A stretch of 64,000 nucleotides of DNA from Christensenellales bacterium (GTDB taxonomy: Bacteria; Bacillota; Clostridia; Christensenellales; UBA3700). The DNA lies in the NCBI GenBank assembly GCA_051883415.1, contig JBJETR010000072.1, forward strand, positions 8,506-72,505, read 5' to 3'. Shown here in pieces: positions 1 to 51,877 of the stretch (the first letter of the stretch is position 1; every line of letters begins with the position of its first letter). A model generated the notes under the pieces. The model did no database searches. It saw only the letters and a program-made list of their open reading frames with translations, and had not been told where the DNA came from. Position numbers and translations under genes: made by a program.

Positions 1-482
1 CCGCCTGTTAGCGGCTTGAACAATTGATGATAATGCTCTTGTCCCGTTGCCGCAAGAGTCGTCAAAGTTCTACCGTGAAAAGAATTGTTGAGGGTAACGA
101 TATTGTAGTATTCCTCTCCCTTCTTGCTTTGAGCGTACTTCCTTGCGACCTTGATTGCGCACTCGTTGGCTTCGGCTCCCGAATTGCTAAAAAACACCTT
201 TTTCATGTCGGTTTTTTGACATAACAGGCATGCCAACTCGGCACAAGGTTTGGTGTAGTACAAGTTAGACGCATGTTGAAAGCAAGCAAGCTGTTCCGCT
301 ACCGCCCTCATCCACTCGTCGTCGCAGTATCCAAAAGCCGTCACGCCTATTCCGCTACCCAAATCGATATATCTCTTGCCCGTCTCGTCCCATACTTCGC
401 TACCCTTTCCTCGACGTATCTCCACGCCAAAACGGTTGTAGGTATTGGCGATATATTCTTTATCTATCTGCTTAGTATTCAT
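1..482 (-). CDS. argD: Acetylornithine aminotransferase, N-terminal part (runs off the window edge)
   Basis: Not in ORF track. Manual translation from ATG at 482 (overlaps argB stop, ATGA) gives MNTKQIDKEYIANTYNRFGVEIRRGKGSEVWDETGKRYIDLGSGIGV, a class-III aminotransferase N-terminus; position in arg operon fits. Confidence 0.9.
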   Translation of the reverse strand, partial: MNTKQIDKEYIANTYNRFGVEIRRGKGSEVWDETGKRYIDLGSGIGVTAFGYCDDEWMRAVAEQLACFQHASNLYYTKPCAELACLLCQKTDMKKVFFSNSGAEANECAIKVARKYAQSKKGEEYYNIVTLNNSFHGRTLTTLAATGQEHYHQLFKPLTG

Positions 483-1345
483 TGGTTATCTCCCATCACC
501 ATAGTACCTGCGCCCTCATTGGTAAGCATCTCCATAAGAATGGCGTGTTCCACTCTTCCGTCCATAATAATTACTTTTCGCACGCCTTTGTTGATAGCTT
601 CTATGCAACAATCCACCTTAGGTATCATACCACCCGAGATAACGCCTTCTTCATACAATTCTTTAGCCTGCGATATCGTTATTGACGGAATAAGTGTAGA
701 CACGTCGTCTTTATCTCTCAGAATGCCTGCCACGTCGGTCATCATCACCAATCTTTCGGCACCCAAAGCGCCTGCAATATACGCTGCCGCCGTATCGCCG
801 TTTATGTTATAAGTATTACCGTCCTTGTCGCAACCCAGAGTGGAAATCACGGGTATATATCCCTTTTCGAGCAAATCGAGCACGGGCGAAATATTGACCT
901 TGGTAACCTTGCCTACGTAGCCGAGTTTTTTATCCTTTTGCTTAGCTTCAATAAGCCTACCGTCCATACCGCTTATGCCCATAGCCTTGCCGCCATTCAT
1001 CTCAATGAGGTTGACAAGCGTTTTGTTCACCTTGCCTGCAAGCACCATTTGCACGATGTCAACGGTCTCCTTGTCGGTCACTCTCAATCCGTCTACGAAC
1101 TCGGCTTTTTTGCCAAGCTTTTGCATAGTGTCGCTAATCTCAGGTCCACCGCCATGTACCAACACTACTTTGACTCCTACCAACCACAACAAGACTATGT
1201 CTTCCATAACCTGTTGCTTAAGCACGTCGGAAGTCATTGCGTTGCCACCATATTTTATTACTATAATCTTGCCGTTATACTTTTTGATATAAGGCAAAGC
1301 TTGCGTCAATACTCTTGCCCTTTGCGCATTAGAAAAATTATCCAT
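479..1345 (-). CDS. argB: Acetylglutamate kinase
   Basis: IKYGGNAM, VHGGGPEI, GLRVTD, NINGD, GGMIPKV motifs; ATG follows GAGGTG RBS. Confidence 0.97.
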   Translation of the reverse strand: MDNFSNAQRARVLTQALPYIKKYNGKIIVIKYGGNAMTSDVLKQQVMEDIVLLWLVGVKVVLVHGGGPEISDTMQKLGKKAEFVDGLRVTDKETVDIVQMVLAGKVNKTLVNLIEMNGGKAMGISGMDGRLIEAKQKDKKLGYVGKVTKVNISPVLDLLEKGYIPVISTLGCDKDGNTYNINGDTAAAYIAGALGAERLVMMTDVAGILRDKDDVSTLIPSITISQAKELYEEGVISGGMIPKVDCCIEAINKGVRKVIIMDGRVEHAILMEMLTNEGAGTMVMGDNQ

Positions 1346-1352
1346 ATTCACC

Positions 1353-2567
1353 TCAAGTACGATAATCTCCGTTGATTTTTACGTAATCATAGGTCAAGTC
1401 GCATCCCCAAGCAGTAGCTTTTGACACTCCTTGATTTAGTTCAACTTTGATCAATATCTCTTTTTCGCTCAAGACTTGCTTGGCTATTTCTTCCGAAAAT
1501 TCTATGCCTGCGCCGTCCTTACAAACCTCAACGGTTCCGACACAACTCTCAAACGCCACGTCAATCTTGTTGACGTCCACGTCCGCTCCGCTATATCCTA
1601 TAGTGCACAACACTCTGCCCCAATTGGCATCTGCGCCGAACATTGCCGCTTTGAGTAGAGAAGATGTAATGACGCTCTTTGCCACCGTTTTGGCAATTTG
1701 TTGGTTCTTCGCTCCGCCGACAACGCATTCAAGAAGTTTAGTTGCGCCCTCGCCGTCACCCGCAATCATACGACACAGCGCAATGGTTACGCTGTTGAGA
1801 GCCTTGACAAATACTTCAAAATTGCCGTCTTCTTGCTCAATCGGTTCGTTACCCGCAAGTCCGTTGGCAAGCACCGTCACCATATCGTTGGTTGACGTGT
1901 CCCCGTCCACACTAACCATGTTGAAGGTATTAGCTATATCGCTGCTCAATGCTTTTTGCAACATAGCACTGCTAATTGCCACGTCGGTAGTTATAAACAC
2001 CAACATGGTTGCCATATTAGGGTGTATCATACCGCTACCTTTAGCCATACCGCCGATGCGACAGGTTTTGCCATTCAATTCAAATTCCACAGCTACTTGC
2101 TTGTCAACCGTGTCGGTAGTCATTATTGCTTCGGCGGCGTCATCGTTTCCTGTATAAGACAAGCCTTGTTCTAATTTTGACATACCCTTTTTGATAGGTG
2201 TCAAGTCGAGCGGCTGACCGATAACGCCCGTAGATGCAACGACAACGTCGTTTTCATTGATACCCAAAGTCTCGGCTACGGCTTTACTCATCTCCTCTGC
2301 GATATACTCGCCGTCAGCATTACAAGTGTTGGCGTTACCGCTATTGCAAATTATCGCTTGTGCCACACCGTCCGCCACGTGCTTTTTCGTAACGACAATA
2401 GGCGCACCCTTGACGAGATTGGTGGTATAAACACACGCAACACTGCATTCTACGTCGCTAACGATGAGTGCCAAATCCTTTTTGCTTTTGTTTTTTCTGA
2501 TTCCGCAATGTACTCCGCTTGCCTTGAAGCCTTGCGCAGCACACACACCGCCTTGTACTACTTTCAT
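1353..2567 (-). CDS. argJ: Ornithine acetyltransferase / N-acetylglutamate synthase
   Basis: NSGNAN, IMTTDT, KGSGMIHPNMATML (autocleavage Thr), DGDTSTND, C-terminal YVKINGDYRT. Confidence 0.97.
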   Translation of the reverse strand: MKVVQGGVCAAQGFKASGVHCGIRKNKSKKDLALIVSDVECSVACVYTTNLVKGAPIVVTKKHVADGVAQAIICNSGNANTCNADGEYIAEEMSKAVAETLGINENDVVVASTGVIGQPLDLTPIKKGMSKLEQGLSYTGNDDAAEAIMTTDTVDKQVAVEFELNGKTCRIGGMAKGSGMIHPNMATMLVFITTDVAISSAMLQKALSSDIANTFNMVSVDGDTSTNDMVTVLANGLAGNEPIEQEDGNFEVFVKALNSVTIALCRMIAGDGEGATKLLECVVGGAKNQQIAKTVAKSVITSSLLKAAMFGADANWGRVLCTIGYSGADVDVNKIDVAFESCVGTVEVCKDGAGIEFSEEIAKQVLSEKEILIKVELNQGVSKATAWGCDLTYDYVKINGDYRT

Positions 2568-2569
2568 AT

Positions 2570-3496
2570 TTACCTCTTAATTATCAATCCTTTTGTGATA
2601 TCTTGTCCCAACACTATGTTAAGATTTTCTATCGCCGAACCCGATGCGCCCTTTCCAAGATTATCATATAGGGCAATCAGCGAAATTCTCTCTTCGTTGC
2701 CTGCAACCGACACAAGCATGTTATCTGCTCCCGACAGTTTGTTGGCGTAGATAAAGCCTCCGTCCGACATATCGTCACAAAAACTTACTAGTCCTTGGGC
2801 ATACACGTCTTTATACACTTTTTTTATATCGTCCATACTTGCTTTTATATCCTTGGCAAAAAGTGGAACGCTCACTTCCATACCGCTAAAAAAAGGAGCT
2901 ACGATAGGATAAAAAGCAGGCGAAAACTCGATACGTGTCACGCTTTTCATCTCTTTGAGATGCTTATGAGACTGACTCAAAGCGTATTGGGCAGGAGAAC
3001 TAATCAATATGCTATTGTCCCCGCTTTCATACTGCTCAATCATCTTCTTGCCTCCTCCCGAATAACCCGTAACAGACCAACAAGTCAAAGCAATACTCTT
3101 GTCTAATATTCCCGCATCGACGAGCGGTTTGACCAAGGCGATAAAACCGCTTGCGTGACAACCGGGATTAGCTATTCTCTTGCTATTAGCGATGGCATCG
3201 ATTCCCGTCAATTCCGCAAACCCGTACGTCCAGCCGTCGGCAGTTCTGTGTGCCGTCGACGTATCTATCACTACGGTGTCGGGGTTCTCAATCATCTCGA
3301 CCGCCTCTTGTGCCGCAGCATCGGGCAGACACAATATAGCTACGTCTGATTGATTGAGAGCATTTTTTCTCGCCGCGTAATCTTTTCTATCATTTTCACT
3401 TAGAGTGATAAGTCGGATATCGTCACGATGAGACAATCTATCAAGTATTCTTAGTCCCGTCGTACCGGCACTACCGTCAATAAAAACACTTTTCAT
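2570..3496 (-). CDS. argC: N-acetyl-gamma-glutamyl-phosphate reductase (short type)
   Basis: VFIDGSAGTTGL, ANPGCH (catalytic Cys), GYSGGGK, DNLGKGA; start moved to ATG 3496 after AAGGAG. Confidence 0.95.
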   Translation of the reverse strand: MKSVFIDGSAGTTGLRILDRLSHRDDIRLITLSENDRKDYAARKNALNQSDVAILCLPDAAAQEAVEMIENPDTVVIDTSTAHRTADGWTYGFAELTGIDAIANSKRIANPGCHASGFIALVKPLVDAGILDKSIALTCWSVTGYSGGGKKMIEQYESGDNSILISSPAQYALSQSHKHLKEMKSVTRIEFSPAFYPIVAPFFSGMEVSVPLFAKDIKASMDDIKKVYKDVYAQGLVSFCDDMSDGGFIYANKLSGADNMLVSVAGNEERISLIALYDNLGKGASGSAIENLNIVLGQDITKGLIIKR

Positions 3497-3498
3497 AG

Positions 3499-4869
3499 TT
3501 ATATTGCTCCTTTGACAAAAGCAATTTGTTTTTCTACCGAAGTCAGGCTCGTTCCTCCCTCGGAGGTACGCTTTTCTACACAATTTTTCAAGTCAATCGC
3601 CTCATACAAATCCTTGTCGAAGACGTTGCTATGAGCCTTGTACTCATCGAGGCTCAATTCTTCGAGAGTCTTACCCTTGCCTATACACTCCGCCACAATC
3701 TGTCCTGAGATTTTGTAGGCTTCTCTAAAAGGCACTCCCTTTTTGGTCATATAGTCGGCTAGGTCGGTTGCGTTGATAAATCCACCCGCAGCCGCTTTTT
3801 TCATCTTGTCGGGCTTGGTAGTCATAGTGGCTATCATGGGAGCCGTCACGTCCAGGCACTTTGCAAGAGTATCGATTGCGTCGAATACGCTCTCCTTGTC
3901 CTCTTGCATATCCTTGTTGTAAGCGAGCGGAAGTCCTTTGAGCATAGTCAGCAGTGCCATCAAATCGCCGTACACTCTGCCCGTCTTGCCCCTTACCAAT
4001 TCTGCCATATCGCTATTCTTCTTTTGCGGCATAATCGACGAGCCCGTCGTATAGGCATCGCTGAGCTCGACAAATCCAAACTCAAGGCTAGTCCACAGCA
4101 CGAGTTCTTCGCACAATCTCGACAGATGCATCATAGTGATGGCGCAGTCGCTGACGATTTCTAGACAAAAATCCCTATCCGATACGCCGTCCATGGAGTT
4201 TTGGCACACACTATCGAAGCCAAGTCGCTCAGCTTCAAATTCTCTATCGGTGTCGTAGGTCGTTCCCGCCAAAGCGCAACTGCCGATAGGCGAGACGTTG
4301 AGCCTTTTTACTCCGTCGTCGAACCTTCCCAAATCCCTAAGTAGCATCATGCAATACGCCAAGAGATGATGTGCCATAGTCACGGGTTGAGCCCTTTGCA
4401 AGTGTGTATATCCCGGCATAATGCTGTCTTTATTCTTCTCGGCTTGTGCTACGAGTGCCGATATGAGCTTTTTGATTTTGCTCGTCAACTCGCTCACGCA
4501 CTCTCTCACGTACATTCTCATATCCAACGCAACTTGGTCGTTTCTGCTACGTGCGGTATGTAATTTTTTACCTACGTCACCTACTCTTTGGGTAAGGACT
4601 TGCTCTATGAACATGTGCACGTCCTCACAAGATAGGTCAAAATCAAGCTTACCGTTGTCAATATCTTCGACAATACCCGCCAATCCGTCCGCCAAAATAT
4701 TTGCTTCGGCTTGCGTAATAATACCTTGCTTGGCAAGCATTGCCGCATGCGCTATACTGCCTGCAATATCTTGCTTGTACATTCTGCTGTCAAAAGCTAT
4801 CGAAGAATTGAAGTCATCGGCGATTTTATCCGTCATTCCGCTAGTTCTTCCCGCCCAAAGTTTTGCCAT
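3499..4869 (-). CDS. argH: Argininosuccinate lyase
   Basis: KLWAGR, HTARSRNDQ, PGYTHLQRAQP, GSSIMPQKKN signature. Confidence 0.97.
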   Translation of the reverse strand: MAKLWAGRTSGMTDKIADDFNSSIAFDSRMYKQDIAGSIAHAAMLAKQGIITQAEANILADGLAGIVEDIDNGKLDFDLSCEDVHMFIEQVLTQRVGDVGKKLHTARSRNDQVALDMRMYVRECVSELTSKIKKLISALVAQAEKNKDSIMPGYTHLQRAQPVTMAHHLLAYCMMLLRDLGRFDDGVKRLNVSPIGSCALAGTTYDTDREFEAERLGFDSVCQNSMDGVSDRDFCLEIVSDCAITMMHLSRLCEELVLWTSLEFGFVELSDAYTTGSSIMPQKKNSDMAELVRGKTGRVYGDLMALLTMLKGLPLAYNKDMQEDKESVFDAIDTLAKCLDVTAPMIATMTTKPDKMKKAAAGGFINATDLADYMTKKGVPFREAYKISGQIVAECIGKGKTLEELSLDEYKAHSNVFDKDLYEAIDLKNCVEKRTSEGGTSLTSVEKQIAFVKGAI

Positions 4870-4923
4870 ACTCTCTCCTATTATTGCCAAAAGTCTTTCG
4901 ACCTGCGAAAGACTTGGGTTGCT

Positions 4924-6147
4924 TTATTTTTTGTTTTTTGCGTCCACCATTGCCTTGACTTTGATAGGCAATCCATATAGATTTATGAAGCCGGCGCTGT
5001 CTTGTTGATTGTAGTCACTCTCGCCGAAAGTCGCAATCTCTTCACTATACAACGAGTAGTCGCTCCATACCCCCGCATTGATCATATTGCCCTTGTAAAG
5101 TTTTAGTCTAACCTTACCCGTCACAGTCTCCTGCGTCTTGTCCACGAATGCACTCAATGCCTCTCTCAGAGGTGTAAACCATTGACCGTTGTACACCAAT
5201 TCGGCAAAGGTAATGGACAATTTTTGCTTTTCGTGCATAGTCATTTTGTCAAGGCAAATGCTTTCCAATACGCTGTGCGCCTTGTACAAAATCGTACCAC
5301 CCGGTGTCTCGTACACGCCACGGCACTTCATACCTACCAGACGGTTTTCTACGATATCCAATATACCTATACCGTTTTTACCTCCAATCTCGTTGAGCTT
5401 AAGAATGATATTTTTTGCGCTCATCTTCTCGCCGTTGAGAGCCACAGGCTTACCTTTGACAAACTCTAGTTCCACGTACTCGGGTACGTCAGGTGCGGCG
5501 ATTGGTGATACGCCCATCTCCAAAAAGCCCTTCTTCTCATACATAGGCTCGTTGCCCGTATCCTCTAGGTCAAGCCCCTCGTGCGACAAGTGCCACAAGT
5601 TTTTGTCCTTGCTATAGTTGGTTTCTCTATTGATTTTGAGAGGTATATTGTGAGCCTCGGCATAGTCGATTTCTTCGTCACGTGACTTGATATTCCACTC
5701 ACGCCAAGGTGCGATGATAGGCATATCGGGCGCAAAGTGCTTGATTGTCAACTCAAAACGCACTTGGTCGTTGCCCTTGCCCGTACAGCCGTGGCAAATG
5801 GCGTCGGCGCCCTCTTTGAGTGCAATATCAACCAATCCCTTTGCTATGCAAGGACGTGCATGACTAGTGCCCAAGAGGTATTCTTCGTATACGGCACCCG
5901 CCTGCATTGTAGGAATGATATACTCATCCACGTATTCGTCGGTCAAATCAAGCACGTAGAGCTTGGATGCACCCGTCTTGATAGCCTTTTCCTCGAGTCC
6001 TTCCAGCTCGTCGGCTTGTCCCACGTTGCCCGACACGGCAATAACTTCACAGTTATTATAGTTTTCTTTTAGCCAAGGAATGATAATAGAAGTATCGAGT
6101 CCACCGCTATAAGCCAAAACAACTTTTTTAATTTTATTTTTATCCAT
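4924..6147 (-). CDS. argG: Argininosuccinate synthase
   Basis: [40 protein letters not shown]. Confidence 0.98.
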
Positions 6148-13365: not shown

Positions 13366-13860
13366 TTAAGCCTCATTCCCAATTCTATATCTCCAAGCTT
13401 CAATCTTTATCTCAAAGCCGTTGTCGGTATAGGATAGCTGTATTTTTTCCACTGCATTATCTTCCGCATTGACGTCTACAATGACTTTGACGTTTAGCCC
13501 CTCTTTACCCAGCGCCAATTGAGAATCTCTAATAACTCCTTCGAAGCGATAGCCCTTGTCGGTCTTGATGTATTCGCCGTCAAGATTGCTCGTTTTCCAA
13601 TTGAGTGCCAAGTCGTCCTGTCGAGCCGTCACGTCCAAGTCGAGGGGGTTATAAATAACGCCGTCAATCTCGCTATACACGACTTGCTTGTCTTGCATAA
13701 CTATAGTATCTATCCTTACAAAAGATCCTTGCTCTAAGTTGTCTAATGCACTTTGCGTAGTTCTCCAATCCTTAGTCACCTCGAAGGTCAGTGCCGAAGT
13801 CGCCACCAATATAGCTATGACAAGGAGAAAAAATAATAACAATCTACCGTTAAATTTCAT
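13366..13860 (-). CDS. Exported or membrane-anchored hypothetical protein
   Basis: N-terminal hydrophobic helix; overlaps the upstream gene stop; GGAAG RBS. Confidence 0.7.
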   Translation of the reverse strand: MKFNGRLLLFFLLVIAILVATSALTFEVTKDWRTTQSALDNLEQGSFVRIDTIVMQDKQVVYSEIDGVIYNPLDLDVTARQDDLALNWKTSNLDGEYIKTDKGYRFEGVIRDSQLALGKEGLNVKVIVDVNAEDNAVEKIQLSYTDNGFEIKIEAWRYRIGNEA

Positions 13861-30671: not shown

Positions 30672-31183
30672 AGCAAACCTCTAAACATAACTCTCGACTT
30701 GACCACGGCAGGGGCAACCTCAAGAGGCAACGATTCGGGCAAAGATTCCTTTCTTTGTCTTATCGAAGCAAGATAACTTTGCACAATCATCATCATTTTT
30801 ATATATTTTACGGCGAGCAAGTTGTCGCCTACGGTAATGAGTCTGCCCTGCGTATAGGCTTGGAAAAAGGATATCTTGTTGCCGAGCACAATCTCTTCGC
30901 TGGCAAGGTTCTTAAACATAATCTGCAACGAATTATTAGAAGATATGTAGTCCACCACGATTTTGCATTGCAACTCACCGCCAAGCTTGGTAATCAAAGC
31001 GGCGTGGTGCCTATCCAAAACCCCTATCACGAGGTCAAAGCCGTCGGGCATTTCATCAAAAATTTTTCTCACTCTGCTGTCGTACTTGTAGCAGGCTTTT
31101 ACGCCGCTGAGGTAGACGTAAGAATTGAACAACGAATAAGATTTTCTTATTCTGAGTGGCTTTGCATTATACTTCTTGCTCAT
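30668..31183 (-). CDS. SCP2-like (sterol carrier / lipid-binding) domain protein
   Basis: ISFFQAYTQGRLITVGDNLLAVK matches the SCP2 C-terminal pattern; AAGGAG RBS. Confidence 0.6.
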   Translation of the reverse strand: MSKKYNAKPLRIRKSYSLFNSYVYLSGVKACYKYDSRVRKIFDEMPDGFDLVIGVLDRHHAALITKLGGELQCKIVVDYISSNNSLQIMFKNLASEEIVLGNKISFFQAYTQGRLITVGDNLLAVKYIKMMMIVQSYLASIRQRKESLPESLPLEVAPAVVKSRVMFRGLL

Positions 31184-31382
31184 ACTAGCTCCTTGCAATA
31201 TATTATAACACAGCCCCCATACGTTGTCCATATTATCCCCGTCATCTTAGGTGTGTTTACAATATTTTTACTTGTAATAATATGCATAAATATGTCGCCA
31301 ACGCCCACAATATCATTGCGATTTACATCAATAGACGCCAAAAAGTCGATACGTATCGACAATTTTTGTATAGGAGATAATT

Positions 31383-31532
31383 ATGAAAAAATTTCGTCCC
31401 TTCTTTGCTCGCACTATCAACGCCATACCCCACGCATCTCGTCCGATGTCGTCGCCGTTTGATCCCAACGGCAGTTACACCGGCACGTCTGAATTTGACG
31501 ATATCCCTACGCAAGATGCAGACGATTTATAA
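31383..31532 (+). CDS. 49-aa small protein ending DPNGSYTG...PTQDADDL
   Basis: Not in ORF track; AGGAGA RBS; MKKFRPFFARTINAIPHASRPMSSPFDPNGSYTGTSEFDDIPTQDADDL; C-terminal motif recalled from small clostridial hypothetical proteins. Confidence 0.75.
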   Translation: MKKFRPFFARTINAIPHASRPMSSPFDPNGSYTGTSEFDDIPTQDADDL

Positions 31533-41500: not shown

Positions 41501-42824
41501 TGGCAAAATCGAGCTTTGCAAGCATCTTATCGTCGTTCATAATTCCCGTAATACTAGTAAAGACGTTGTCGGTTGTGATAGTGTCGTCCGAGTTGTCAAA
41601 ACCGTATTTGGTAGTAAACTCGTCTATAAAGGTAGCGAGATTTTGGGTACGCAAATCATCGGTATACGAGTCCAGACCTACGTCGGTAGCGTTAGGAAGC
41701 TTGAAATCTCTAATCAAACACAAAAATTGTGCTTCTCCAAGTTCTACGTTTAGTACGTTCATCAAAGCTTCGACAGGCTTCATATCACAGCCCGAATCTA
41801 CGAAAGTGAGAGGAATGACGGTATTGAGCTTGTCGATTACGCTCTTGACGGCATTGTTGATGGTCTGCATGATAGGCGTATCTCCACCTGCAAACTTGTT
41901 GAGGACGCCCTCGACCTTAGTCATCAAATCTCTGTCAATTTGGTTGATGAGAATACTTGCCTGACCGTTCTCAGCATTTGGCTTGACGTCCATGCCGACG
42001 AATACCGTCTTAGGCAATAAGTTGGCGACAAAGCCTGGCACAGACGTATTCTTGAGTAGCTCGGTTGCAAGTGAAGCCACGTCGATTTTGACAGTGAGTG
42101 ACAAAACTACGTCTTCCAGCTTTGCGCCCGCATCGCTGTCAATCACAATTTGCGACACTTTGGCATGCTTGAGGTATGGCGCATATTGTGATATCGCTCC
42201 CATAGCAGAATCTTCGGAAGAAACACCTTGGGTAATATAATATTGCAAAACGCTGTCTATCAATGCGGCGAATTGCTTGTCGGTAACTTCCAAGATATTC
42301 TCTTCGCCACTATAAGTAGCGAGCGAAGAAAAGTCAAATTCTATCTTGCTCAGCAAATCGTCCAGAGCGGCATTGCCCGTGCCCGTAGGGGTTTCCGACA
42401 AAGCCATCGGAGTGGAAGATTCCTCTTGCTTCTTAGCCGTTGCACTGTCCAAAATGTCGATGATGTCGATATCGCTATCTGCCGACATATACGTCTTGAC
42501 CTTGAATTCGCTGTAGAAATAATCGAGGTCGTTTTGACTATAAGGGTTGGTGACGATTTTTTCTTCATCGGCTTTGTATAAGCCTTTCAAAATATTGAAG
42601 GCGTCGGTTATACTCAATCCAACTTGTGGTTCTACGTATTGTCCCCATGCCCATACTCCACCGCCGATAACGCCGGCAACAAGCACAACGAATATAACTA
42701 ACACGGTGATAAAACACGTTAGACAACCGTGCTTCTTCTTTGGTTTAGGCTCTTTGTTAGCTTTGTTTTTGCTCTCGCCTTTGACCTTGATTTCGTTGAG
42801 ATCTATTTTATCTTTCTTTGCCAT
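38568..42824 (-). CDS. 1418-aa membrane-anchored protein with five diverged ~258-aa repeats
   Basis: Basic N-terminus, one TM, then periodic (L/I)LP...(I/L/F)N.M motifs; GAGGT RBS; terminator at 38538-38563. Confidence 0.85.
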   Translation of the reverse strand: MAKKDKIDLNEIKVKGESKNKANKEPKPKKKHGCLTCFITVLVIFVVLVAGVIGGGVWAWGQYVEPQVGLSITDAFNILKGLYKADEEKIVTNPYSQNDLDYFYSEFKVKTYMSADSDIDIIDILDSATAKKQEESSTPMALSETPTGTGNAALDDLLSKIEFDFSSLATYSGEENILEVTDKQFAALIDSVLQYYITQGVSSEDSAMGAISQYAPYLKHAKVSQIVIDSDAGAKLEDVVLSLTVKIDVASLATELLKNTSVPGFVANLLPKTVFVGMDVKPNAENGQASILINQIDRDLMTKVEGVLNKFAGGDTPIMQTINNAVKSVIDKLNTVIPLTFVDSGCDMKPVEALMNVLNVELGEAQFLCLIRDFKLPNATDVGLDSYTDDLRTQNLATFIDEFTTKYGFDNSDDTITTDNVFTSITGIMNDDKMLAKLDFASLDYDTYSYNAAKHKVGISYLALAGLLNSQLATGSEEASAFPITVLNMAYDQTNEMLEVSIAVDVMQAVVGKAEEGSLVAVFAPQILPEQIFIKAKLSLVSDPAKPTEIRINKCDVEQTTELLTNLNTLCGSLGIDVSQLNLAELTSKLEKSVRDNLTNINSKLGTDIEFVSTECVLPSIFETASGLKMLQDEGGVAIVDDKELHDMLRATYTFEAQEANASNNATGFVTELENKYYLTTGTLDATNGSALFNSVTTIKNNFESSIDVHKMATDTTADINLLKPVLSQEELGFLIQSSGKLDNIVSVLTDITVVATDITATHLNMQISGKVSLTGENAKYAVLLPDKVYVNVYVDTVALKNKIAGISTDDCTSFDIDGMTNDEMNDFFALATKLGGSEVTATQVGTALEDNIYNFMTEIEAGGTIEILFQVGEMKLNTTVFDIAIDQIYADSDPALVPTNVQLRSVLQKVNVIPAELADSNIASDMSRLAGDISDKYYLNTAIDANGDVSSQIASVARDYSTLISGQRMADDTRVVTNGNDLKPQASGGELGRLLSGDVTVSAEGMKDVTMISLTVTSTTTLRIVFTASVESQETDKYAKLLPSSVAIVVEVDTSKVEGVEVCTDFTLNDMTDEDLGVFCNLFKAVANKTVTPDDINADASTKVKDKLRDMTGGATMTYDTADINVNCKGGTVTFASIYGVAINNIYSDGAKPSELDFQNMMKSLFTLTPTVGQTDINATTDKMTSGQISASYVITPTPHGEVVMEISDRNIAATLLANEESGSGVSTALGLTKESVSYKQVLMFNPNYANAATVKDGLGGMTFTDDHSYMLMTLNINTSALMTKTTTLLPTSIDATVFIDVDASDYATTLMFNNMTSDEQKILKDIINSNRTASEGDTTLFDSTATLKTKILETEIISIDKVGGVTIPEKKWTIKDVLDKVVKADGYGVRHSGNTLISGSNYGGFIQVEDTGITIS

Positions 42825-43099
42825 AAACTACCTCAAAAAGATTTATATCTATATAATAATATATTATACCACCGCTTTTGGTGATTTTCAATATTGTTGG
42901 ACATATATTTTTTTATAAATGCGCATATTAAACAATCAAACGCCCTATTTTGTTGGCTTTGCAAGGAAAAATTTTTTTGAAAAATTTTTTGAGAAGTATT
43001 ATCTTTTATAAAGAAAAAGAGGCGTTATTCGCTTGAATAACGTAAATGGCGTGAGATGAGTTTTATTTAGGCAGATTTAGTCGCAGCTCAAAGGATAAG

Positions 43100-44029
43100 A
43101 TTAGAGGCAATCCCTCCGTCTTGCCATAAGCGGCTCGCTCACGGTGGAGATGCGAGTTTGACAAGGAGAGTGAGGACGGTGTGAGGGAGCATACTAATGC
43201 GTATGTGACCGAACGTACCCACATACTCGACACAGTATTGCGAAGTATATACGCCGTGAGACAACCCCTTTGCACAAAGGGGCCTTTTATTAGGTTGAGA
43301 TTGCCACAGCGTGTAAACACGCTTCGCAATGACATACAACCTTTTGACGGTGGAGATGCGAGTTTGACAACCCTTCCACCACCTTCGGTGGTAACTCTTA
43401 CGGCATAGGTGCGAGTTAGGCGAGGAGAACGAGGATTGGGCGACAGGAGCATACTTATCTCAATTCGTAATAAGTAACTAAGTAGTAGTTCTCTCGTGGT
43501 GTAGATACAAGCAAGACAAGGAGTACGAGTATTTTGTGCAGGGAGCATACTCCTTGTATGTGACCAAACAAAAACGTAAGTTACGACACAGTATTGCGAA
43601 GTATATACGCCACGAGAGCGACAAAGCATATCGATAAAGATATGCCGTAAGACACCCTTCCCGAACACAAGGGCGGCTTTTTATAAGATTGAGATTGCCA
43701 AGTTACGTTTCGCTCCACCGCAATGACACACTGCTTGGTCGGTGTTCCAACCCATTTTGACGGCATAGCTGCGAGTAAGACAAGAAAAAGGCAACCTTGT
43801 CGATTGCCTCAATTTGTTATTAGTTGCAATGGTGCCGCTCTATCGCGGTGGAGATGCGAGTAATGAGAGAGTTTGATTTATGTTATTGAGATTTTAATTG
43901 CACAGGTGCGAGTAAGACAAGGAAAAAGGCAACTTTATCGAAGCGAGCGTACTTGGCGTACGTGAGCAAGAAAAGTTGCCTTTTGACACAGTATTACGAA
44001 GTAGATATGCAATTAAAACTCAATAACAC
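43100..44029. repeat. Cluster of nested REP/MITE-like structured repeats
   Basis: Three full ~125-bp copies (43138-43260, 43491-43618, 43892-44018), partial copies, and two GAGATTGCCA...GCAATGAC hairpins. Confidence 0.8.
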
Positions 44030-47000
44030 CGCTGAAGACTTCAACCGACGTCCCCTTCAACATCACGCCCTCGTCGGTATATCTGACTACCATATCGCCA
44101 CCGATTTGCTTGACGGTGATGTCGGTGTCCTTTGGAAGGTAGCCGTTGAGGACGGCGCTGACTACTACGGCACAGCTTCCGCTACCGCTGGCATAGGTTT
44201 CGCCGCAGCCTTTGTCCCACGTGCGAATTTTGACGGTGTGACGGTCTATGACCTTGGCAAACTCTACGTTGGTACGGTCAGGGAATATGCTGTCGTACTC
44301 GAGTTGAGAGCCGAGTTTGGATATATCGATATTGTCGAGATGTTCGACGAATAACACGCAGTGTGGATTGCCCATAGATACGACGTTGAGCATATACTCT
44401 TTGCCGTCTACGGTGTATGGCACGCCAATTGCGTTTTTGCCTGCTAGTTTGACAGGAATGAGTGCCGGTTTGAGAATAGGCGAGCCCATATTGACTGTCA
44501 TATACGTTGCTTCGCCGTCTTGCGTCTTGACGTTGATATCTCTGATACCCGTTGGCGTCTCGATAGTTATGTCGTACTTGTTGACCTTACGATTGTCGTA
44601 GAGATATTTGGCTACTCCGAACAAGCCGTTGCCACATACCATACCTTGAGAGCCGTCACAGTTGAAGATACGCATCTTGGCATCGGCAACCTCCGACTTC
44701 TCGATAAGGATAATGCCTTCCGCACCTACACCGACGTGTCTATCGGACATTCTTACCGCAACGCCCTCAGGATTGTCGATAGTTACACCGTCCAGACAGT
44801 CGAAGAATATTCTATCGTTGCCTGCACTGTGCATCTTGACAAACTTGTGACTTTGTTTGCCCTTGCGAAGTTTGTTGATATCTACAAGCTCGGTATTGTA
44901 CTCGCTGTATCTGCTCATGAGGCAGTTGGCTACCGCATTGGCGGTGTCGATAGAGGTAAGACAAGGGATAGAACGCTCTACCGCCTTTCTTCTTATCTTG
45001 ACGCTGTCGCGAGTCGGCAATTTGCCCTTGGACGAGGTGGAGATGATATAGTCGATTTTTCCACTCTCGATGAGGGTAAGGTTGTTGTGCTCGAGGTTTT
45101 GGTGAATCTTGTCTACCGTAACGACCTCTAGTCCTCTCTCTCTCAGCACACGTGCAGTGCCCTTAGTTGCGTACAAGGTGTAGCCCAAATCTTCGAACTT
45201 CTGAGCGATGTCGCCTATCTCCGCCTTGTCTTGGTCACGCACTGTGATGAATATACCACCCTTTTTCTTCATACGGTAGCCTGCCGCAACCAAACCCTTG
45301 AACAAGGCTTCTTCCAACGTGTCGGCAAGTCCCAAAACTTCGCCCGTGGACTTCATCTCAGGTCCGAGTTGAGTGTCTACGTTGACGAGCTTGGCAAAGG
45401 AGAATACAGGCACCTTGACTGCTACGTAGTTGGACTTTGGATAGAGTCCCGTGCCGTAGCCCATATCGGCAAGCTTTTCACCCAATATGCATCTGGTGGC
45501 AAGGTCTACCATCGGTACTCCCGTCACCTTGCTGATATAAGGAATGGTACGCGAGCTACGAGGGTTGACTTCGATAACGTATAGTTCTTCTTCGTAGATA
45601 AGGTATTGAATATTGACGAGTCCGACAGTGTGCAAGTTGATTGCAAGTAGCTTAGAGCACTCGACTATTCTTGCGAGCATTTCGTCGCTGAGGTTCCAAG
45701 AAGGATATACGGCAATCGAGTCGCCCGAGTGTATGCCCGTACGCTCGATATGTTGCATAACTCCCGGGATAAGTATCTCTTCGCCGTCGCATATAGCGTC
45801 GATTTCTATCTCTCTACCCATGAGATATTTGTCGATAAGTACCGGATTTTCTATCTTTTGGGAGAGGATTACGTCCATATATTCGATGACGTCGGCGTCG
45901 GAGTGGCATACGCACATGTTTTGTCCGCCAAGCACGTAAGACGGACGTAGCAAGGTAGGATATCCTATCTTGTTGGCTACCTCCAAAGCTTCCTCTTTGG
46001 TCATTATGGTGTAACCCACGGGACGCTTGATTTGTAATCTTTCGAGCAACTCGTCGAAGAGTTCTCTATCCTCCGCCATGTCGATATATTCGGCTTGAGT
46101 GCCGAGAATCTTGATATTACGTTCTCTAAAGAGTTTGGTGAGCTTGATAGCCGTCTGTCCACCGAAGGCTACGACTACGCCGTCAGGCTTCTCGGTGTGA
46201 AGAATGTTGAGCACGTCTTCGTTGGTGAGAGGCTCGAAGTATAGTCTGTCGGCAGTATCGAAGTCGGTGGATACCGTCTCGGGATTGTTGTTGACTATGA
46301 CTACTTCGTAGCCCTTGCGTTTGAGAGCCCATACACAGTGCACGGACGCATAGTCAAACTCTACGCCTTGTCCGATACGGATAGGTCCGCTACCGAATAC
46401 GATAACTTTCTTTTTGCCTTGAGAATGAGCTTGGATAAACTGCTCGGCTTCGTTGTCGCTGTCGTAGGTGGAATAGAAGTAAGGCGTCTGCGCAGGGAAT
46501 TCCGCCGAACACGTGTCTACCATCTTGTACGAAGCGTACACAGGATTGGCAATCTTTTTGCCACTAATTCTCTCGATAGAACTGTCGAGGAAACCTACCT
46601 TTTTGGCTTGTAGATAGAGCTCGTCGTCAAGGTCGTCGCTCGATAAGCGCTTCTCGATATCTAAGATATTGACGAGTTTGTTGAGGAACCACCTGTCTAT
46701 TCTCGTCTTGGTGTGAATCTCGTTGACGGTGACGCCCCTCTTGAGAAGTTCGTAGATGACGAAGAGTCTTTCGTCATCACATGCGAGCATCTTGTCTTGC
46801 AATTCCATGTCGCTCATTGCGGCAATCTTCTTGTTGTAGAGGGTATCCATGGAGATTTCCGCACCTCTTACAGCCTTCATCAAGGCTTGTTCGAAGGAAG
46901 AACCGATGGACATTACTTCGCCCGTTGCTTTCATTTGCGTGCCGAGTTGACGGCTAGCGTAGAAGAATTTGTCGAACGGCCACTTAGGGAATTTGACTAC

Positions 47001-48059
47001 GATATAGTCGACCGTAGGCTCGTTGCAGGCGTAGGTGCAACCCGTAACGGCGTTTTTGATTTCGTCAAGGCTGTAGCCGATTGCAATCTTGGTGGCTACT
47101 TTGGCTATCGGATAACCCGTTGCCTTGCTGGCAAGCGCCGAGCTACGACTGACGCGTGGATTGACTTCGATAACGGCGTATTCTAAACTGTCGGGATGCA
47201 ATGCAAATTGCACGTTGCAACCACCCTCGACTCGGAGTGCGTTGACGATTTTGAGCGCCGCACTGCGAAGCATTCCGAATTCTTTCTCCGATAGCGTTAC
47301 CGCAGGAGCAACGACTATACTGTCACCCGTGTGCACGCCGACAGGATCAACGTTCTCCATACTACATACCGTAATGCAATTGCCCTTGCTATCTCTTATT
47401 ACTTCGAACTCGATTTCTTTCCAACCGCTTATACACTTCTCGACCAATATCTGGTGAATAGGACTGAGGCGAAGTCCGTTCTCGGCGATGTCTTCGAACT
47501 CATCTTGGTTGTGAGCGATACCGCCGCCCGTTCCGCCCAAAGTAAATGCCGGACGTATGATGACTGGATAACCAATCTCTCTTGCTACCCTTATGCCGTC
47601 GTCCATGGTATTGACGACCTCGGAAGGAATGACGGGCTCGTTAATCTCTGCGAGCGTGTCCTTGAAGCTTTGTCTGTCCTCGGCTCTATCTATCGTCTCG
47701 GGATTGGCGCCCAAAAGTCGTACGCCCATCTTGTCAAGGAAGCCTTCCTTGGCGAGTTGCATGCTGAGAGTAAGTCCCGTCTGTCCGCCGAGTGTGGACA
47801 AAAGACTGTCGGGACGCTCCTTCTCGATAATTCTCTTGACGGTGGTGAGCGTCAAAGGCTCGATATATATCCTGTCTGCCACCGCATTGTCGGTCTGTAT
47901 AGTTGCCGGATTGGAATTGACAAGCACGACTTCGAGATTGTCTTCTTTGAGCGCTCTGCACGCTTGAGTGCCTGCATAGTCAAATTCCGCAGCCTGTCCG
48001 ATGACGATTGGTCCCGAACCTATTACCATTACTTTGTGCAAATCTTTGTTGAGTGGCAT
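44013..48059 (-). CDS. carB: Carbamoyl-phosphate synthase large subunit fused to a C-terminal DapF-like domain
   Basis: GSGPIVIGQAAEFDY, two ATP-grasp domains (EVNPR), MGS domain, then FVKMHSAGND...CGNG...MGNPH...TNVEF in the same frame. Confidence 0.95.
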   Translation of the reverse strand: MPLNKDLHKVMVIGSGPIVIGQAAEFDYAGTQACRALKEDNLEVVLVNSNPATIQTDNAVADRIYIEPLTLTTVKRIIEKERPDSLLSTLGGQTGLTLSMQLAKEGFLDKMGVRLLGANPETIDRAEDRQSFKDTLAEINEPVIPSEVVNTMDDGIRVAREIGYPVIIRPAFTLGGTGGGIAHNQDEFEDIAENGLRLSPIHQILVEKCISGWKEIEFEVIRDSKGNCITVCSMENVDPVGVHTGDSIVVAPAVTLSEKEFGMLRSAALKIVNALRVEGGCNVQFALHPDSLEYAVIEVNPRVSRSSALASKATGYPIAKVATKIAIGYSLDEIKNAVTGCTYACNEPTVDYIVVKFPKWPFDKFFYASRQLGTQMKATGEVMSIGSSFEQALMKAVRGAEISMDTLYNKKIAAMSDMELQDKMLACDDERLFVIYELLKRGVTVNEIHTKTRIDRWFLNKLVNILDIEKRLSSDDLDDELYLQAKKVGFLDSSIERISGKKIANPVYASYKMVDTCSAEFPAQTPYFYSTYDSDNEAEQFIQAHSQGKKKVIVFGSGPIRIGQGVEFDYASVHCVWALKRKGYEVVIVNNNPETVSTDFDTADRLYFEPLTNEDVLNILHTEKPDGVVVAFGGQTAIKLTKLFRERNIKILGTQAEYIDMAEDRELFDELLERLQIKRPVGYTIMTKEEALEVANKIGYPTLLRPSYVLGGQNMCVCHSDADVIEYMDVILSQKIENPVLIDKYLMGREIEIDAICDGEEILIPGVMQHIERTGIHSGDSIAVYPSWNLSDEMLARIVECSKLLAINLHTVGLVNIQYLIYEEELYVIEVNPRSSRTIPYISKVTGVPMVDLATRCILGEKLADMGYGTGLYPKSNYVAVKVPVFSFAKLVNVDTQLGPEMKSTGEVLGLADTLEEALFKGLVAAGYRMKKKGGIFITVRDQDKAEIGDIAQKFEDLGYTLYATKGTARVLRERGLEVVTVDKIHQNLEHNNLTLIESGKIDYIISTSSKGKLPTRDSVKIRRKAVERSIPCLTSIDTANAVANCLMSRYSEYNTELVDINKLRKGKQSHKFVKMHSAGNDRIFFDCLDGVTIDNPEGVAVRMSDRHVGVGAEGIILIEKSEVADAKMRIFNCDGSQGMVCGNGLFGVAKYLYDNRKVNKYDITIETPTGIRDINVKTQDGEATYMTVNMGSPILKPALIPVKLAGKNAIGVPYTVDGKEYMLNVVSMGNPHCVLFVEHLDNIDISKLGSQLEYDSIFPDRTNVEFAKVIDRHTVKIRTWDKGCGETYASGSGSCAVVVSAVLNGYLPKDTDITVKQIGGDMVVRYTDEGVMLKGTSVEVFSGVIEF

Positions 48060-49120
48060 TATCTATTCTCCTTTGTCATATTGATAAATTGGTCGTATAT
48101 AAAATCCGTTGCTATAGGTCCACCGTTGAAGCTTGGTAAAAACTCGGTGGAGATTGCCGTATAGCAGTCGTATTCCAAGCCCTCTACGCTACCGTCGTTG
48201 ACATTGACGAAGGCTGTTTTTACGCCCTTGGCATCGCTGAGGTCAAGGTCTGTATTATGGTTTTGGTATGTGACAAATAAGCGACCTGTATCGAGTTTTT
48301 TGGTAGGTTGGTTGCTTCCGTGATGTCCGTATTTCATATCTTTGAGCTTAGCTCCGCACGAGAGTGCCATGAGCTTGTGTCCCAATCCTATACCAAGCAT
48401 TGGTAGCTTTTTGCCGACCTTAGCAATATTATCAACCACACTATCGTAATCGCTCACTCTATCACTGCCCGATGACCAAACTACGCCGACAGGATTGGTA
48501 GCGAGTATTTGCTCCGCGGTTGTGTCCGCACCAACAATCTCTACGCTCATTCCTTTAGCAACCAGGCTGTCTGCGATATCGTAAACTTCTCCCAAATCGA
48601 CTAGACAAACCTTGTCGCCCTTGCCTACTATTTTACCCGAATTATTGGCACCTCTACCTTGGATAGACGTGCTTGGATCGTAACTAGCCAGCAGTGCTTT
48701 TTGCTCCTCGTCAAGACTTGACGAAGAAGTAATCAAGGCGTTGACGGAGCCGTTATCTCTGATGATTTTGGTAAGGTGGCGAGTGTCGATGCCTGCCATG
48801 CCTACCACGCCTCGCTCTTGCATCAACTTAGCAATGCAACCTACGCTACGGAAGTTGGATGGCTTGTCACACACCTCTCTGACAAGAACTGCCTTGACGT
48901 GACTGTCCTTGCCCTCCACGTCACTGTTGACGCCGTAATTGCCAAATGCGGGAAAAGTGTCTACGACTATCTGCCCCTCGTAACACTCGTCGGTGAGCAA
49001 AGTCATATCCCCACCCATTGCGGTGTTGAATACCAGCTGTCCCACTACTTGTTTGCGTGCTCCGAAAGCCATGCCTTCAAAGACTTGTCCACTTGCAAGA
49101 TACAAATAAATTTTGTCCAT
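48059..49120 (-). CDS. carA: Carbamoyl-phosphate synthase small subunit, glutaminase triad absent
   Basis: LVFNTAMGG, GIDTRHLT, YGHHGSNQP, YQNH; but GIGLGH replaces GICLGH and FLPS replaces (Y/F)HPE. Confidence 0.9.
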   Translation of the reverse strand: MDKIYLYLASGQVFEGMAFGARKQVVGQLVFNTAMGGDMTLLTDECYEGQIVVDTFPAFGNYGVNSDVEGKDSHVKAVLVREVCDKPSNFRSVGCIAKLMQERGVVGMAGIDTRHLTKIIRDNGSVNALITSSSSLDEEQKALLASYDPSTSIQGRGANNSGKIVGKGDKVCLVDLGEVYDIADSLVAKGMSVEIVGADTTAEQILATNPVGVVWSSGSDRVSDYDSVVDNIAKVGKKLPMLGIGLGHKLMALSCGAKLKDMKYGHHGSNQPTKKLDTGRLFVTYQNHNTDLDLSDAKGVKTAFVNVNDGSVEGLEYDCYTAISTEFLPSFNGGPIATDFIYDQFINMTKENR

Positions 49121-49151
49121 ATATACCTCTCAAAAATTTTCGATATGATAT

Positions 49152-49200
49152 AAAAAAAGAAGACTACTCAACGCATATCACAATGCCTTGTCAGTCTTCT
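49152..49200 (-). terminator. Leader terminator (attenuator) upstream of carA
   Basis: AGAAGACT...AGTCTTCT stem followed by a U tract, between the promoter and carA RBS. Confidence 0.75.
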
Positions 49201-49252
49201 AATACGTAGTGCCAATATCGTTTCGGCTTTTGCCCTTGTACGTTGGTAGCAT
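49199..49252 (-). CDS. Putative leader peptide MLPTYKGKSRNDIGTTY
   Basis: AGGAGA-TTT-ATG; 17 codons; TAG stop overlaps the 5' arm of the terminator. Confidence 0.45.
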   Translation of the reverse strand: MLPTYKGKSRNDIGTTY

Positions 49253-49466
49253 AAATCTCCTATTAGTACGATTGTCAGCAACGAGTATTGTCATTGCTCA
49301 TAGTTGCTCGACACCATTGCCGAGCCATTATTAAAATAATACGCTAAACTACCCCTTGGTGTCAATCTAAAATAGGCAAAAAAATAATATTTATTTGGCT
49401 CAATTTTAATGACACAAAGGCGTGATTTTGGTATACTAAATGCGTATTTTATCTATGGAGGTTTTT

Positions 49467-50888
49467 ATGCAAAAGGCTATCAACGACAAAATTCACGAAG
49501 AATGCGGTATTTTCGGCATATACGACAAATCCAAAGCCGGCAGTATTGCCAGCACGGTATATTACGGCTTATTCGCTCTTCAACACCGCGGTCAAGAAGC
49601 TGCCGGTATAGCTGTCAACTTCAATAGAGAGATTACTCTCGTGAGAGGTCTCGGCTTGGTGAGTGACGTATTTAAGCACAAAGACCTTGCCTCAATGCCG
49701 GGCGATATCGCCATTGGTCACGTAAGATATAGTTCCGGTCCGTTTAAGGGTGTGGAAAATGCTCAACCCATCACAGTCAACTACGCCAAAGGCAACCTTA
49801 CCGTGGCACACAACGGCAATATTACCAACTCGCAAGCTTTGCGAACGGCTCTAGAAAATCAAGGCGCAATATTCCACTCCAACAACGACAGCGAAATAAT
49901 CTGCTATCTCATAGCAAGAGAAAGACTAAAATGCAAGACGATTGAGGAGGCAGTTGCCAACGTAGTGCCTATGCTCAAAGGTGCATTCTCATTGCTAATC
50001 ATGAGTCCTACCAAGCTCATCGCATTGAGAGATCCTCTCGGCATCAGACCTCTATGTATGGGCTATATCAACGAGAGCGTCGTATTCGCTAGCGAAACTT
50101 GTGCTCTCGAAACGGTGGGCGCAAGATTTGAAAGAGATATCAAACCGGGTGAAATATTGGTGGTTAGCAAGGACGATATGTATAGCGATATGCGCTTTGC
50201 CACCGACAAGTCGGCACTGTGCATATTCGAACACGTGTACTTCGCAAGGCCCGATAGCACCATAGACAACCAAAGCGTCAACGAGGCTCGTATGAATGCG
50301 GGTAAGCTGCTGGCTATGCAATATCCCGTAGACGCAGACTTGGTAATAGGCGTGCCGGATAGCGGTCTTTGTAGTGCGATAGGCTACTCCGCTCAAAGCG
50401 GTATCCCTTACGGCACGGGACTCATCAAAAATAGATATATAGGAAGAACCTTTATTCAACCTACCCAAGCCATGAGAGAGAGAAGCGTTGCTCTCAAACT
50501 CAACGCTTTGGAGAGCAACGTCAAGGGCAAACGTATAGTGATGATCGACGACTCCATCGTAAGAGGCACTACCCTCAAAAATATCGTCAAATTGCTAAAA
50601 ACCGCCGGAGCAACCGAAGTGCACGTTCGTATCAGCTCGCCTAAATTCTTGTATCCTTGCTTCTACGGCACCGATATCCCCGATAGAAGTTGCCTAGCCG
50701 CAGTCAAGTGGACGGAAGAAGAAATTAGACAAAACCTAGATGCAGATACTCTTGGTTTCCTCAAACTAGAAAGCGTAAAAGATATCGCTCCTTGCTCGAC
50801 GACAGACTTTTGTACCGCCTGCTTTGACGGCAAATATCCGTCTTGCGTGGACAACACTATCGACTCGCAATTTATCGACAAACTGTAG
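49467..50888 (+). CDS. purF: Amidophosphoribosyltransferase
   Basis: Propeptide then EECGIFG (Cys1 intact), QHRGQE, DDSIVRGTT, Fe-S cysteines (CTACF). Confidence 0.97.
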   Translation: MQKAINDKIHEECGIFGIYDKSKAGSIASTVYYGLFALQHRGQEAAGIAVNFNREITLVRGLGLVSDVFKHKDLASMPGDIAIGHVRYSSGPFKGVENAQPITVNYAKGNLTVAHNGNITNSQALRTALENQGAIFHSNNDSEIICYLIARERLKCKTIEEAVANVVPMLKGAFSLLIMSPTKLIALRDPLGIRPLCMGYINESVVFASETCALETVGARFERDIKPGEILVVSKDDMYSDMRFATDKSALCIFEHVYFARPDSTIDNQSVNEARMNAGKLLAMQYPVDADLVIGVPDSGLCSAIGYSAQSGIPYGTGLIKNRYIGRTFIQPTQAMRERSVALKLNALESNVKGKRIVMIDDSIVRGTTLKNIVKLLKTAGATEVHVRISSPKFLYPCFYGTDIPDRSCLAAVKWTEEEIRQNLDADTLGFLKLESVKDIAPCSTTDFCTACFDGKYPSCVDNTIDSQFIDKL

Positions 50889-50896
50889 GAGAAAAT

Positions 50897-51877
50897 ATGT
50901 ACCAATCTCAACTAAATCTTATTCAAACCGAAATAGCTATCAAAACCATCAAGGACAACTTTGAAAAGTTCTTAGCAGGCAACCTAAACTTGACGAGAGT
51001 TTCCGCTCCCCTCTTCGTGCTAAACGATACGGGGCTCAACGATAACCTCAACGGCGTAGAACGCCCGGTAAGCTTTGATATCAAACAAACCGGCAAGACG
51101 GCGGAAGTCGTACATTCTCTGGCAAAATGGAAGAGATATGCTCTGCACTACTACGGCTTCGAGGTGGACAGCGGTCTATATACCGATATGAACGCTATAC
51201 GCCGTGACGAGGAATGTGACGAAATCCACTCTCTATACGTAGACCAATGGGATTGGGAAAGAGTCATCAGCGAAGAAGAACGCAACCTCGCTTTCCTCAA
51301 GGAAATCGTAGGCAAGATATACGACGCTATCTATTCTACTGCCAACCTCATCGAAAGCACGTACGGTCTTGAAAACTTTTTGCCTAAACAAATCACCTTT
51401 ATCACCTCGCAAGAGTTGGAAGACATTTATCCCGACCTCGAGCCTAAGGAGAGAGAGAACGAACTAGCTAAACAACTCGGTGCAATATTCATCATAGGTA
51501 TCGGCGACGAATTGAAATCGGGCAAGCCTCACGACAACCGCGCACCCGACTACGACGACTGGGCTCTCAACGGCGACCTCATCGTATGGTATCCCGTGCT
51601 CAACCGTTCGGTGGAATTGTCGTCGATGGGTATAAGAGTCAACAAGGACGCTATGCTATACCAGCTTAACAAATTAGGTGCATGCGACAGACTCGAGCTT
51701 GCTTTCCACAAGGCTTTGATGAATGACGAATTGCCACTGACTATTGGCGGTGGTATAGGTCAATCTCGCCTCTGCATGGTACTTTTGCACAAGGCACATA
51801 TCGGCGAAGTGCAAAACTCTATTTGGCCCGACGAGATGGTGGAAGAGTGCAAGAATAAAAACATCTTTTTGCTGTAA
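50897..51877 (+). CDS. asnA: Aspartate-ammonia ligase
   Basis: NDNLNGVERPV, HSLAKWKR, VDQWDWE, RAPDYDDW, TIGGGIGQSR. Confidence 0.97.
   Translation: MYQSQLNLIQTEIAIKTIKDNFEKFLAGNLNLTRVSAPLFVLNDTGLNDNLNGVERPVSFDIKQTGKTAEVVHSLAKWKRYALHYYGFEVDSGLYTDMNAIRRDEECDEIHSLYVDQWDWERVISEEERNLAFLKEIVGKIYDAIYSTANLIESTYGLENFLPKQITFITSQELEDIYPDLEPKERENELAKQLGAIFIIGIGDELKSGKPHDNRAPDYDDWALNGDLIVWYPVLNRSVELSSMGIRVNKDAMLYQLNKLGACDRLELAFHKALMNDELPLTIGGGIGQSRLCMVLLHKAHIGEVQNSIWPDEMVEECKNKNIFLL

Follow-up and report, generated by a model that had tools for sequence, protein, structure and literature searches.

In a 64,000-nucleotide stretch of DNA from a Christensenellales bacterium (assembly GCA_051883415.1, contig JBJETR010000072.1, positions 8,506 to 72,505; hereafter the window, from whose first letter positions are counted), we analyzed a gene for the small subunit of carbamoyl phosphate synthetase (CPS) in which the entire catalytic triad of the glutaminase is replaced. 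Judged from sequence comparisons, this gene, which we label carA* (window 48059..49120, minus strand, 353 amino acids), is likely to encode a non-catalytic structural partner of the large subunit CarB, and the CarA*-CarB enzyme, whose CarB is fused to a DapF domain, would make carbamoyl phosphate from free ammonia. We consider it probable that a structural CarA* on an ammonia-fed CPS represents the counterpart of the Bacteroides CarB2 system.

Translation and alignment to Escherichia coli CarA bore out the initial annotation of an intact open reading frame (ORF) carrying the altered motifs GIGLGHK, FLPS, and SSGSDRV, and the frame is free of stops and frameshifts over all 353 residues. In the alignment to E. 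coli CarA chains, Cys269, His353, and Glu355 correspond to Gly245, Leu328, and Ser330 of CarA*. Gly245, at the position of the catalytic cysteine, is encoded by GGA (48386..48388, minus strand) within GIGLGHK (residues 243-249), and His-Pro-Glu is replaced by Leu-Pro-Ser (TTA-CCA-AGC, 48131..48139, minus strand) within EFLPS (residues 326-330), so that Leu328 is encoded by TTA and Ser330 by AGC. SSGSDRV occupies residues 216-222, where E. coli CarA has SNGPGDP. We take SNGPG, Gln273, and Phe314 to form the glutamine pocket and oxyanion loop of CarA. At these sites, positions N217, P219, G220, Q249, and Y290 are substituted in all seven copies from the genus and G218 is retained; the substitutions differ within the genus (Q249 to Ala, Glu, or Lys; Y290 to Met or Thr; N217 to Ala or Ser). 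A review states that glutamine hydrolysis requires both Cys-269 and His-353 (PMC6245113). By homology, CarA* belongs to the CPS small-subunit family: it matched PF00988 (CPSase_sm_chain, 136 bits) and PF00117 (class-I glutamine amidotransferase, GATase, 85 bits), its gene lies upstream of carB, and it scored 307.6 bits against NCBIfam PRK12838, above the cut-off of 221. Its TIGR01368 score of 292.8 fell below the cut-off of 307.35 and, on its sequence, it does not qualify as a glutamine-hydrolyzing CarA, as both the Cys-His-Glu triad and the glutamine pocket are absent. A protein 73% identical to CarA* is labeled Christensenellales by its source.

Our results support the initial proposal that carA* encodes a retained subunit and is neither a sequencing error nor a decaying pseudogene. 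The other six genomes of the genus all carry Gly-Leu-Ser or Gly-Leu-Gly at the triad positions, with CarA* identities of 57-93% and the same neighboring genes, and so do all 14 members listed from the nearest 90% cluster (60 members); because relatives carry the same residues at these positions, sequencing error is ruled out. None of the seven genus copies contains a stop or frameshift, down to 57% identity. Pairwise ratios of nonsynonymous to synonymous substitution rates (dN/dS), whose calculation had been suggested alongside the initial annotation, indicated purifying selection and not neutral evolution: within the genus, and with some distant pairs near saturation, they were 0.037-0.144 for the N-terminal domain and 0.093-0.213 for the GATase domain of carA*, 0.013-0.032 for carB, and 0.013-0.059 for the fused dapF domain. 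Fisher tests for purifying selection on the closest pairs gave p ≤ 6e-8 in six of six cases. Among 60 intact CarA proteins, 85 positions are conserved at 95% or more; every genus copy keeps 48 of these, and the other 37 include those that we take to form the glutamine pocket. A model of the complex of CarA* with residues 1-560 of CarB reached an interaction prediction score from aligned errors (ipSAE) of 0.90, compared with 0.00 for the best of three controls, although a similar complex has been solved and the pass may simply reproduce that known structure. Among solved pairs, 51 of 78 attained the ipSAE mark, as did 2 of 108 mismatched pairs; the runs agreed in at least 98% of contacts, with a predicted local distance difference test score of at least 91 for the partner. 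The model thus shows predicted likeness to the solved complex, not binding. Positions at the predicted CarB interface were invariant across the seven genus copies more often than positions elsewhere (35/48 versus 121/304, p 2e-5). Because dN/dS is well below 1 and the predicted CarB interface is preferentially conserved, retention is supported over pseudogene decay.

On contig C27, the source genome (G000) also carries a second carA, which is intact (GICLGHQ, YHPE) and paired with a carB of its own. This copy had been missed in the initial annotation, which had proposed a search for it, and the idea that the genome holds no second carA is rejected. Contigs C27 and C67 overlap by 55 bases, giving a cluster made up of C67:9790-27231 and C27:1-9117 with genes for glutamate synthase, glnA, GSIII, amtB, asnB, purC, purA, purB, guaA, pyrG, purF, carA, carB, dapF, and dapL (several names were assigned by reading translations). 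Its G+C content is 47.9%, compared with 44.0% for the genome. Elsewhere, G000 has ddh, asnA, and a second guaA, whose 425-residue product (C69:4883-6157, near ddh) has lost about 90 residues of its GATase domain and has neither the Cys nor HPE. Short GuaA proteins nearly identical to it are found in four further genera of this family. In G000, G001, G003, G006, and G016, we found no glmS above cut-off and no amidase/gatA match; a NagB-like ORF (G000:C72:139112-139837) might supply glucosamine-6-phosphate from ammonia.

We examined the distribution of triad loss in 57 family genomes, that is, G000 and 56 others at least 90% complete. The CarA clade of the carA* locus is present in 42 of them, with the triad broken in 17 and intact in 25; for G064, G077, G081, and G082, in which carB is cut by a contig end, the clade was assigned from the CarA tree. 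The broken triads read GLS, GMT, GSE, SHE, and CRE, the last two losing one residue only. Short, glutaminase-deleted GuaA was found in 17/17 broken-triad and 0/24 intact-triad genomes (G068, cut at a contig end, was left out; the 17 short GuaA were aligned, and most intact ones were judged by frame length). Likewise, ddh, encoding the ammonium-using Ddh, was present in 17/17 versus 4/25 genomes and a second carA in 14/17 versus 0/25. The CarB tree, covering 38 of the 42 genomes, places three triad changes, and a single origin of triad loss was rejected (approximately unbiased test, 20 rows, p 5e-8). The co-occurrence thus repeats, but it is not statistically significant because there are only three independent origins. 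Ten of the 57 genomes have carB and no carA (PF00988 search), in the order pyrB-pyrC-pyrF-carB-pyrK-pyrD and with CarB in a separate clade; all ten have ddh, nine have a short GuaA frame, and one, G010, has a full-length GuaA without the Cys. G016 had no PF00117 match at all. Direct use of ammonia, as proposed in the initial annotation, appears from these genomic correlates (short GuaA, Ddh, second carA) to be the best inference; the cell, however, would not be limited to ammonia, as an intact carAB is present.

In some family genomes, CarA*-CarB may be the sole CPS. No other carA or carB was found in G001, G003, or G006, which are 96-97% complete; pyrB is present in all three and argF in G001 and G006. 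In G001 (96% complete), 24.3 kb of the intact cluster is deleted within one contig, with carA*-carB, pyrB, and argF kept; since the flanks are joined in that contig, an assembly gap was rejected as the cause. For G006, only the downstream flank of the cluster was found, inside a contig. Carbamate kinase was considered as an alternative source of carbamoyl phosphate and rejected, with a match above cut-off in 0 of 18 genomes tested; it is missing from G001, G003, and G006, and G001 is without arcC.

The partner of CarA* is encoded by a carB-dapF fusion of 1348 amino acids (44013..48059, minus strand; ORF and profile matches), the ATG of which overlaps the carA* stop codon (TAATG). Synthetase motifs in both ATP-grasp halves are intact and match those of E. 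coli. The fused DapF domain forms the C-terminal part (44013..44855, minus strand). DapF epimerases use two catalytic cysteines; here the first is retained (CGNG) and the second is replaced by serine (ASGSGS instead of ACGTGA). From its sequence, the fused domain, although conserved, is likely not an epimerase, and it is possible that it acts as a regulatory domain. One or both cysteines are missing from the fused DapF in 17 of 22 broken-CarA loci, as opposed to 3 of 29 intact-CarA loci, and both are kept where the second locus shows dapL but no dapF, which is so in five genomes with broken CarA. The initial annotation had raised the co-occurrence of triad loss with the CarB-DapF fusion. This was not upheld: among the best 80 named loci, of up to 600 scanned, the triad is altered in 7 and intact in 73, and 34 of the intact ones carry the fusion, so that a tie between the two is rejected.

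Several observations weigh against an ammonia-fed role for CarA*-CarB. According to the review cited above, the ammonia concentrations that E. coli CPS requires are very high and probably unphysiological (PMC6245113). In the family, GuaA and second carA co-vary with the triad in three of three independent pairs, for a sign-test p of 0.25 each, and Ddh differs in only one to two of the three; moreover, in G014, G029, and G034 the triad-less CarA belongs to a different clade, and neither ddh nor short GuaA is present. Glutamine use has not been abandoned, because the PurL triad is kept in five of five genomes and the PurF cysteine in 19 of 20 loci; glutamine synthetase is present as well, and a wholly glutamine-free metabolism is rejected. 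No purA or purB match was found in G001, G002, G003, or G006 and no pyrG match in G001, G003, or G006, and such genomes may be partial auxotrophs that salvage nucleotides; the status of CarA*-CarB as sole CPS is therefore no proof of required flux. More broadly, a CTP synthase match is missing in 16 of 57 family genomes, purA in 4 of 7 genus genomes, and purB in all five genomes tested (G001, G002, G003, G006, and G016), with purF and purL kept, which reflects either auxotrophy or novel replacement enzymes. A search of G000 for a hidden PP-loop CTP- or AMP-forming enzyme yielded seven SGGxDS proteins, none unexpected by eye and without family-library runs. Finally, the intact CarA of 14 of the 17 broken-triad genomes could complement in trans.

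This last point leads to an alternative in which CarA* merely keeps CarB folded and flux requires the intact cluster-encoded CarA to move onto CarB-DapF, leaving the enzyme glutamine-fed. Besides the frequent second carA, G008 and G032 speak for such a swap: each has an orphan intact carA (purF-carA-pyrG-dapL) without its own carB, the only carB in the genome adjoins the triad-less carA, and both are candidates for CarA subunit swapping. Yet G001, G003, and G006 have no other carA to swap in, the absence in G001 being a real in-contig deletion, ten family genomes have carB and no carA at all, and the intact carA of G000 has its own carB; we regard this alternative as unlikely. Somewhat more improbable to us is a regulatory or sensory role for CarA*, which would bind glutamine or a different nitrogen signal while the Cys-less DapF domain sensed a second ligand; any use of ammonia would then be incidental. 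Conservation of the GATase and DapF domains despite their lost catalytic residues is consistent with sensing, as is the skew of DapF cysteine loss toward broken-CarA loci (17/22 versus 3/29), but the glutamine-pocket positions are lost and vary within the genus while the interface positions are kept.

Gradual erosion of a paralogue made redundant when the second carAB was gained, with the locus kept for other reasons, would account for the long branches leading to triad-less clades in the CarA tree and for the carA* GATase-domain dN/dS (0.09-0.21) exceeding that of the intact second copy (0.07). We judge it very unlikely, as dN/dS largely refutes it: the seven genus copies are unbroken despite their divergence, the carB adjoining the broken carA is under tighter constraint than the second carB (dN/dS 0.013-0.032 versus 0.040-0.049), and it is the second cluster, not the carA* locus, that was deleted in G001. 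Hardly credible, in our view, is an enzyme running partly in reverse to make ATP from carbamoyl phosphate, which would need no nitrogen donor site; the 18 genomes without a carbamate kinase above cut-off leave that role fillable, but the two ATP-grasp halves are undamaged, argF sits alongside the biosynthetic arg operon, and one source calls the overall CPS reaction irreversible (PMC6022934).

Compared with E. coli CarAB (PDB 1bxr/1c30; TIGR01368/TIGR01369), the system shares the domain layout, operon order, synthetase motifs, and predicted subunit interface, and differs in the missing Cys269, His353, and Glu355, the TIGR01368 score below cut-off, and the C-terminal DapF fusion. The label "CPS-I-like" in the initial annotation holds only as an analogy. 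As in vertebrate CPS I, for which ammonia is the donor, an inactive glutaminase-like moiety is retained and the nucleophilic cysteine is replaced; in human CPS1, its place is taken by Ser294, and ammonia has been proposed to enter from the side (PMC4655335; PDB 5dot/5dou). Unlike CPS I, however, which is one polypeptide, the subunits here are two ORFs with a stop/start overlap, the His and Glu are lost too, and the closest relatives are clostridial CarA proteins whose triad is intact. CPS I also needs N-acetylglutamate (NAG); of its NAG-site residues, Thr1391 and Thr1394 are kept in the carA*-linked CarB, but Trp1410, Asn1437, and Asn1449 are replaced by Lys, Ser, and Ser. By analogy, then, CarA*-CarB would work like CPS I without being a member of it. 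Bacteroides CarB2 offers the closer parallel (PMC8121099): two CPS systems in one gut anaerobe, a glutamine-type carAB with dapF/dapL and ammonium-uptake genes, and another CPS proposed to use ammonium and paired with Ddh, whose gene is also present in G000. CarB2 is, however, an orphan large subunit, whereas here a full-length dead CarA is coupled to a CarB that carries a DapF domain. Ammonium use by Bacteroides thetaiotaomicron CarB2 rests on fitness data and, that paper says, biochemical confirmation is still to come. The archaeal routes outlined in PMC6022934 (the 41-kDa CPS of Methanobrevibacter smithii and the carbamate-kinase-like CPS of Pyrococcus) likewise use free ammonia, but with other architectures and without any CarA.

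More broadly, an altered triad was seen in 20 of 120 matches listed among 1743 protein matches altogether. In Clostridioides difficile CD160, which contributes one of the 7 altered loci among the 80 named ones, a carA after pyrF encodes GIGLGHQ and YIPE, with Cys and His lost, a second, intact carA lies on another contig, and no DapF fusion was seen alongside. All 14 full-length listed members of the 231-member 90% cluster of this CarA, including a strain 630 entry, share the loss, and sources name members of the cluster "glutamine-hydrolyzing." The two contigs, together with two genomes of its family in which paired carA genes are separated by 4.6 kb, lead us to infer a tandem carA order in C. 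difficile. General triad loss in the C. difficile family was rejected, as 30 of 30 loci retrieved from a 41-genome sample were intact; those of the two other genomes with tandem carA pairs were not among the 30. In the literature covered, which mostly excluded older subscription journals, we came across no report of a bacterial CarA that naturally lacks the triad.

In the window, a sigma-70-like promoter (TTGACA-18-TATTAT, 11/12; 49336..49365, minus strand) precedes carA* and a terminator-like hairpin (43788..43810, minus strand) follows carB-dapF, both by consensus match only. Profile matches identified a divergent purF with its N-terminal Cys kept (49440..50888, plus strand) and asnA, for aspartate-ammonia ligase (50843..51877, plus strand), which is linked to carA* in all seven genus genomes. 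An argG-argH-argC-argJ-argB operon, a consumer of carbamoyl phosphate, lies at 479..6147 (minus strand), with argF just outside the window. In one pig metatranscriptome run, a contig of a relative, about 92% alike, spans 44015-49260 and a separate contig spans purF-asnA; the remaining runs gave small shares only. This coverage is no proof of transcription because a control stretch was likewise largely covered (depths 7-100). In the RNA runs, many short contigs of other organisms align to 43063-43990, between carB-dapF and a 1418-residue ORF, and this region is possibly a structured RNA or repeat. The 1418-residue ORF (38568-42824, minus strand) has a segment resembling a membrane anchor at its N terminus and matches no Pfam family at 1e-8; ORFs of 624 residues (13850-15724, minus strand) and 235 residues (30755-31462, plus strand) were also without a match at this threshold.

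We propose that CarA* would bind and stabilize CarB and that NH3 would reach CarB from the solvent; purified bacterial CarB works with ammonium, according to work cited in the CarB2 paper (PMC8121099). CarA*-CarB, AsnA, Ddh, and the glutaminase-deleted GuaA may be what the cell uses when ammonium is plentiful, and the intact cluster may provide the glutamine-driven counterpart for when it is scarce, as proposed for CarB2/Ddh versus CarAB/DapLF in B. thetaiotaomicron, with ammonium presumably regulating the two. The additions made here are the second intact cluster, the co-occurrence pattern, the G001 deletion, the carB-only genomes, and the C. difficile case. We advance more tentatively, as a possibility that may well prove wrong, a two-mode nitrogen switch in gut Clostridia. 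Its ammonia-direct core (dead-CarA CPS, short GuaA, Ddh, and AsnA) would have arisen at least three times in the family and again in C. difficile; a deletable cluster would give versions driven by glutamine and aspartate, and in some species it would do so by placing a live CarA on the same CarB; lineages without purA, purB, and pyrG may hide ammonia-direct AMP and CTP enzymes. Because the Cys/His-less CarA of C. difficile is called glutamine-hydrolyzing by sources, annotation and metabolic models of this species may be wrong on this point. A CarA that is naturally dead yet retained offers a direct test case and, in bacteria, parallels the change from CPS III to CPS I. That it occurs together with short GuaA and Ddh suggests that the combination could mark, in genomes, gut bacteria suited to ammonium-rich conditions.

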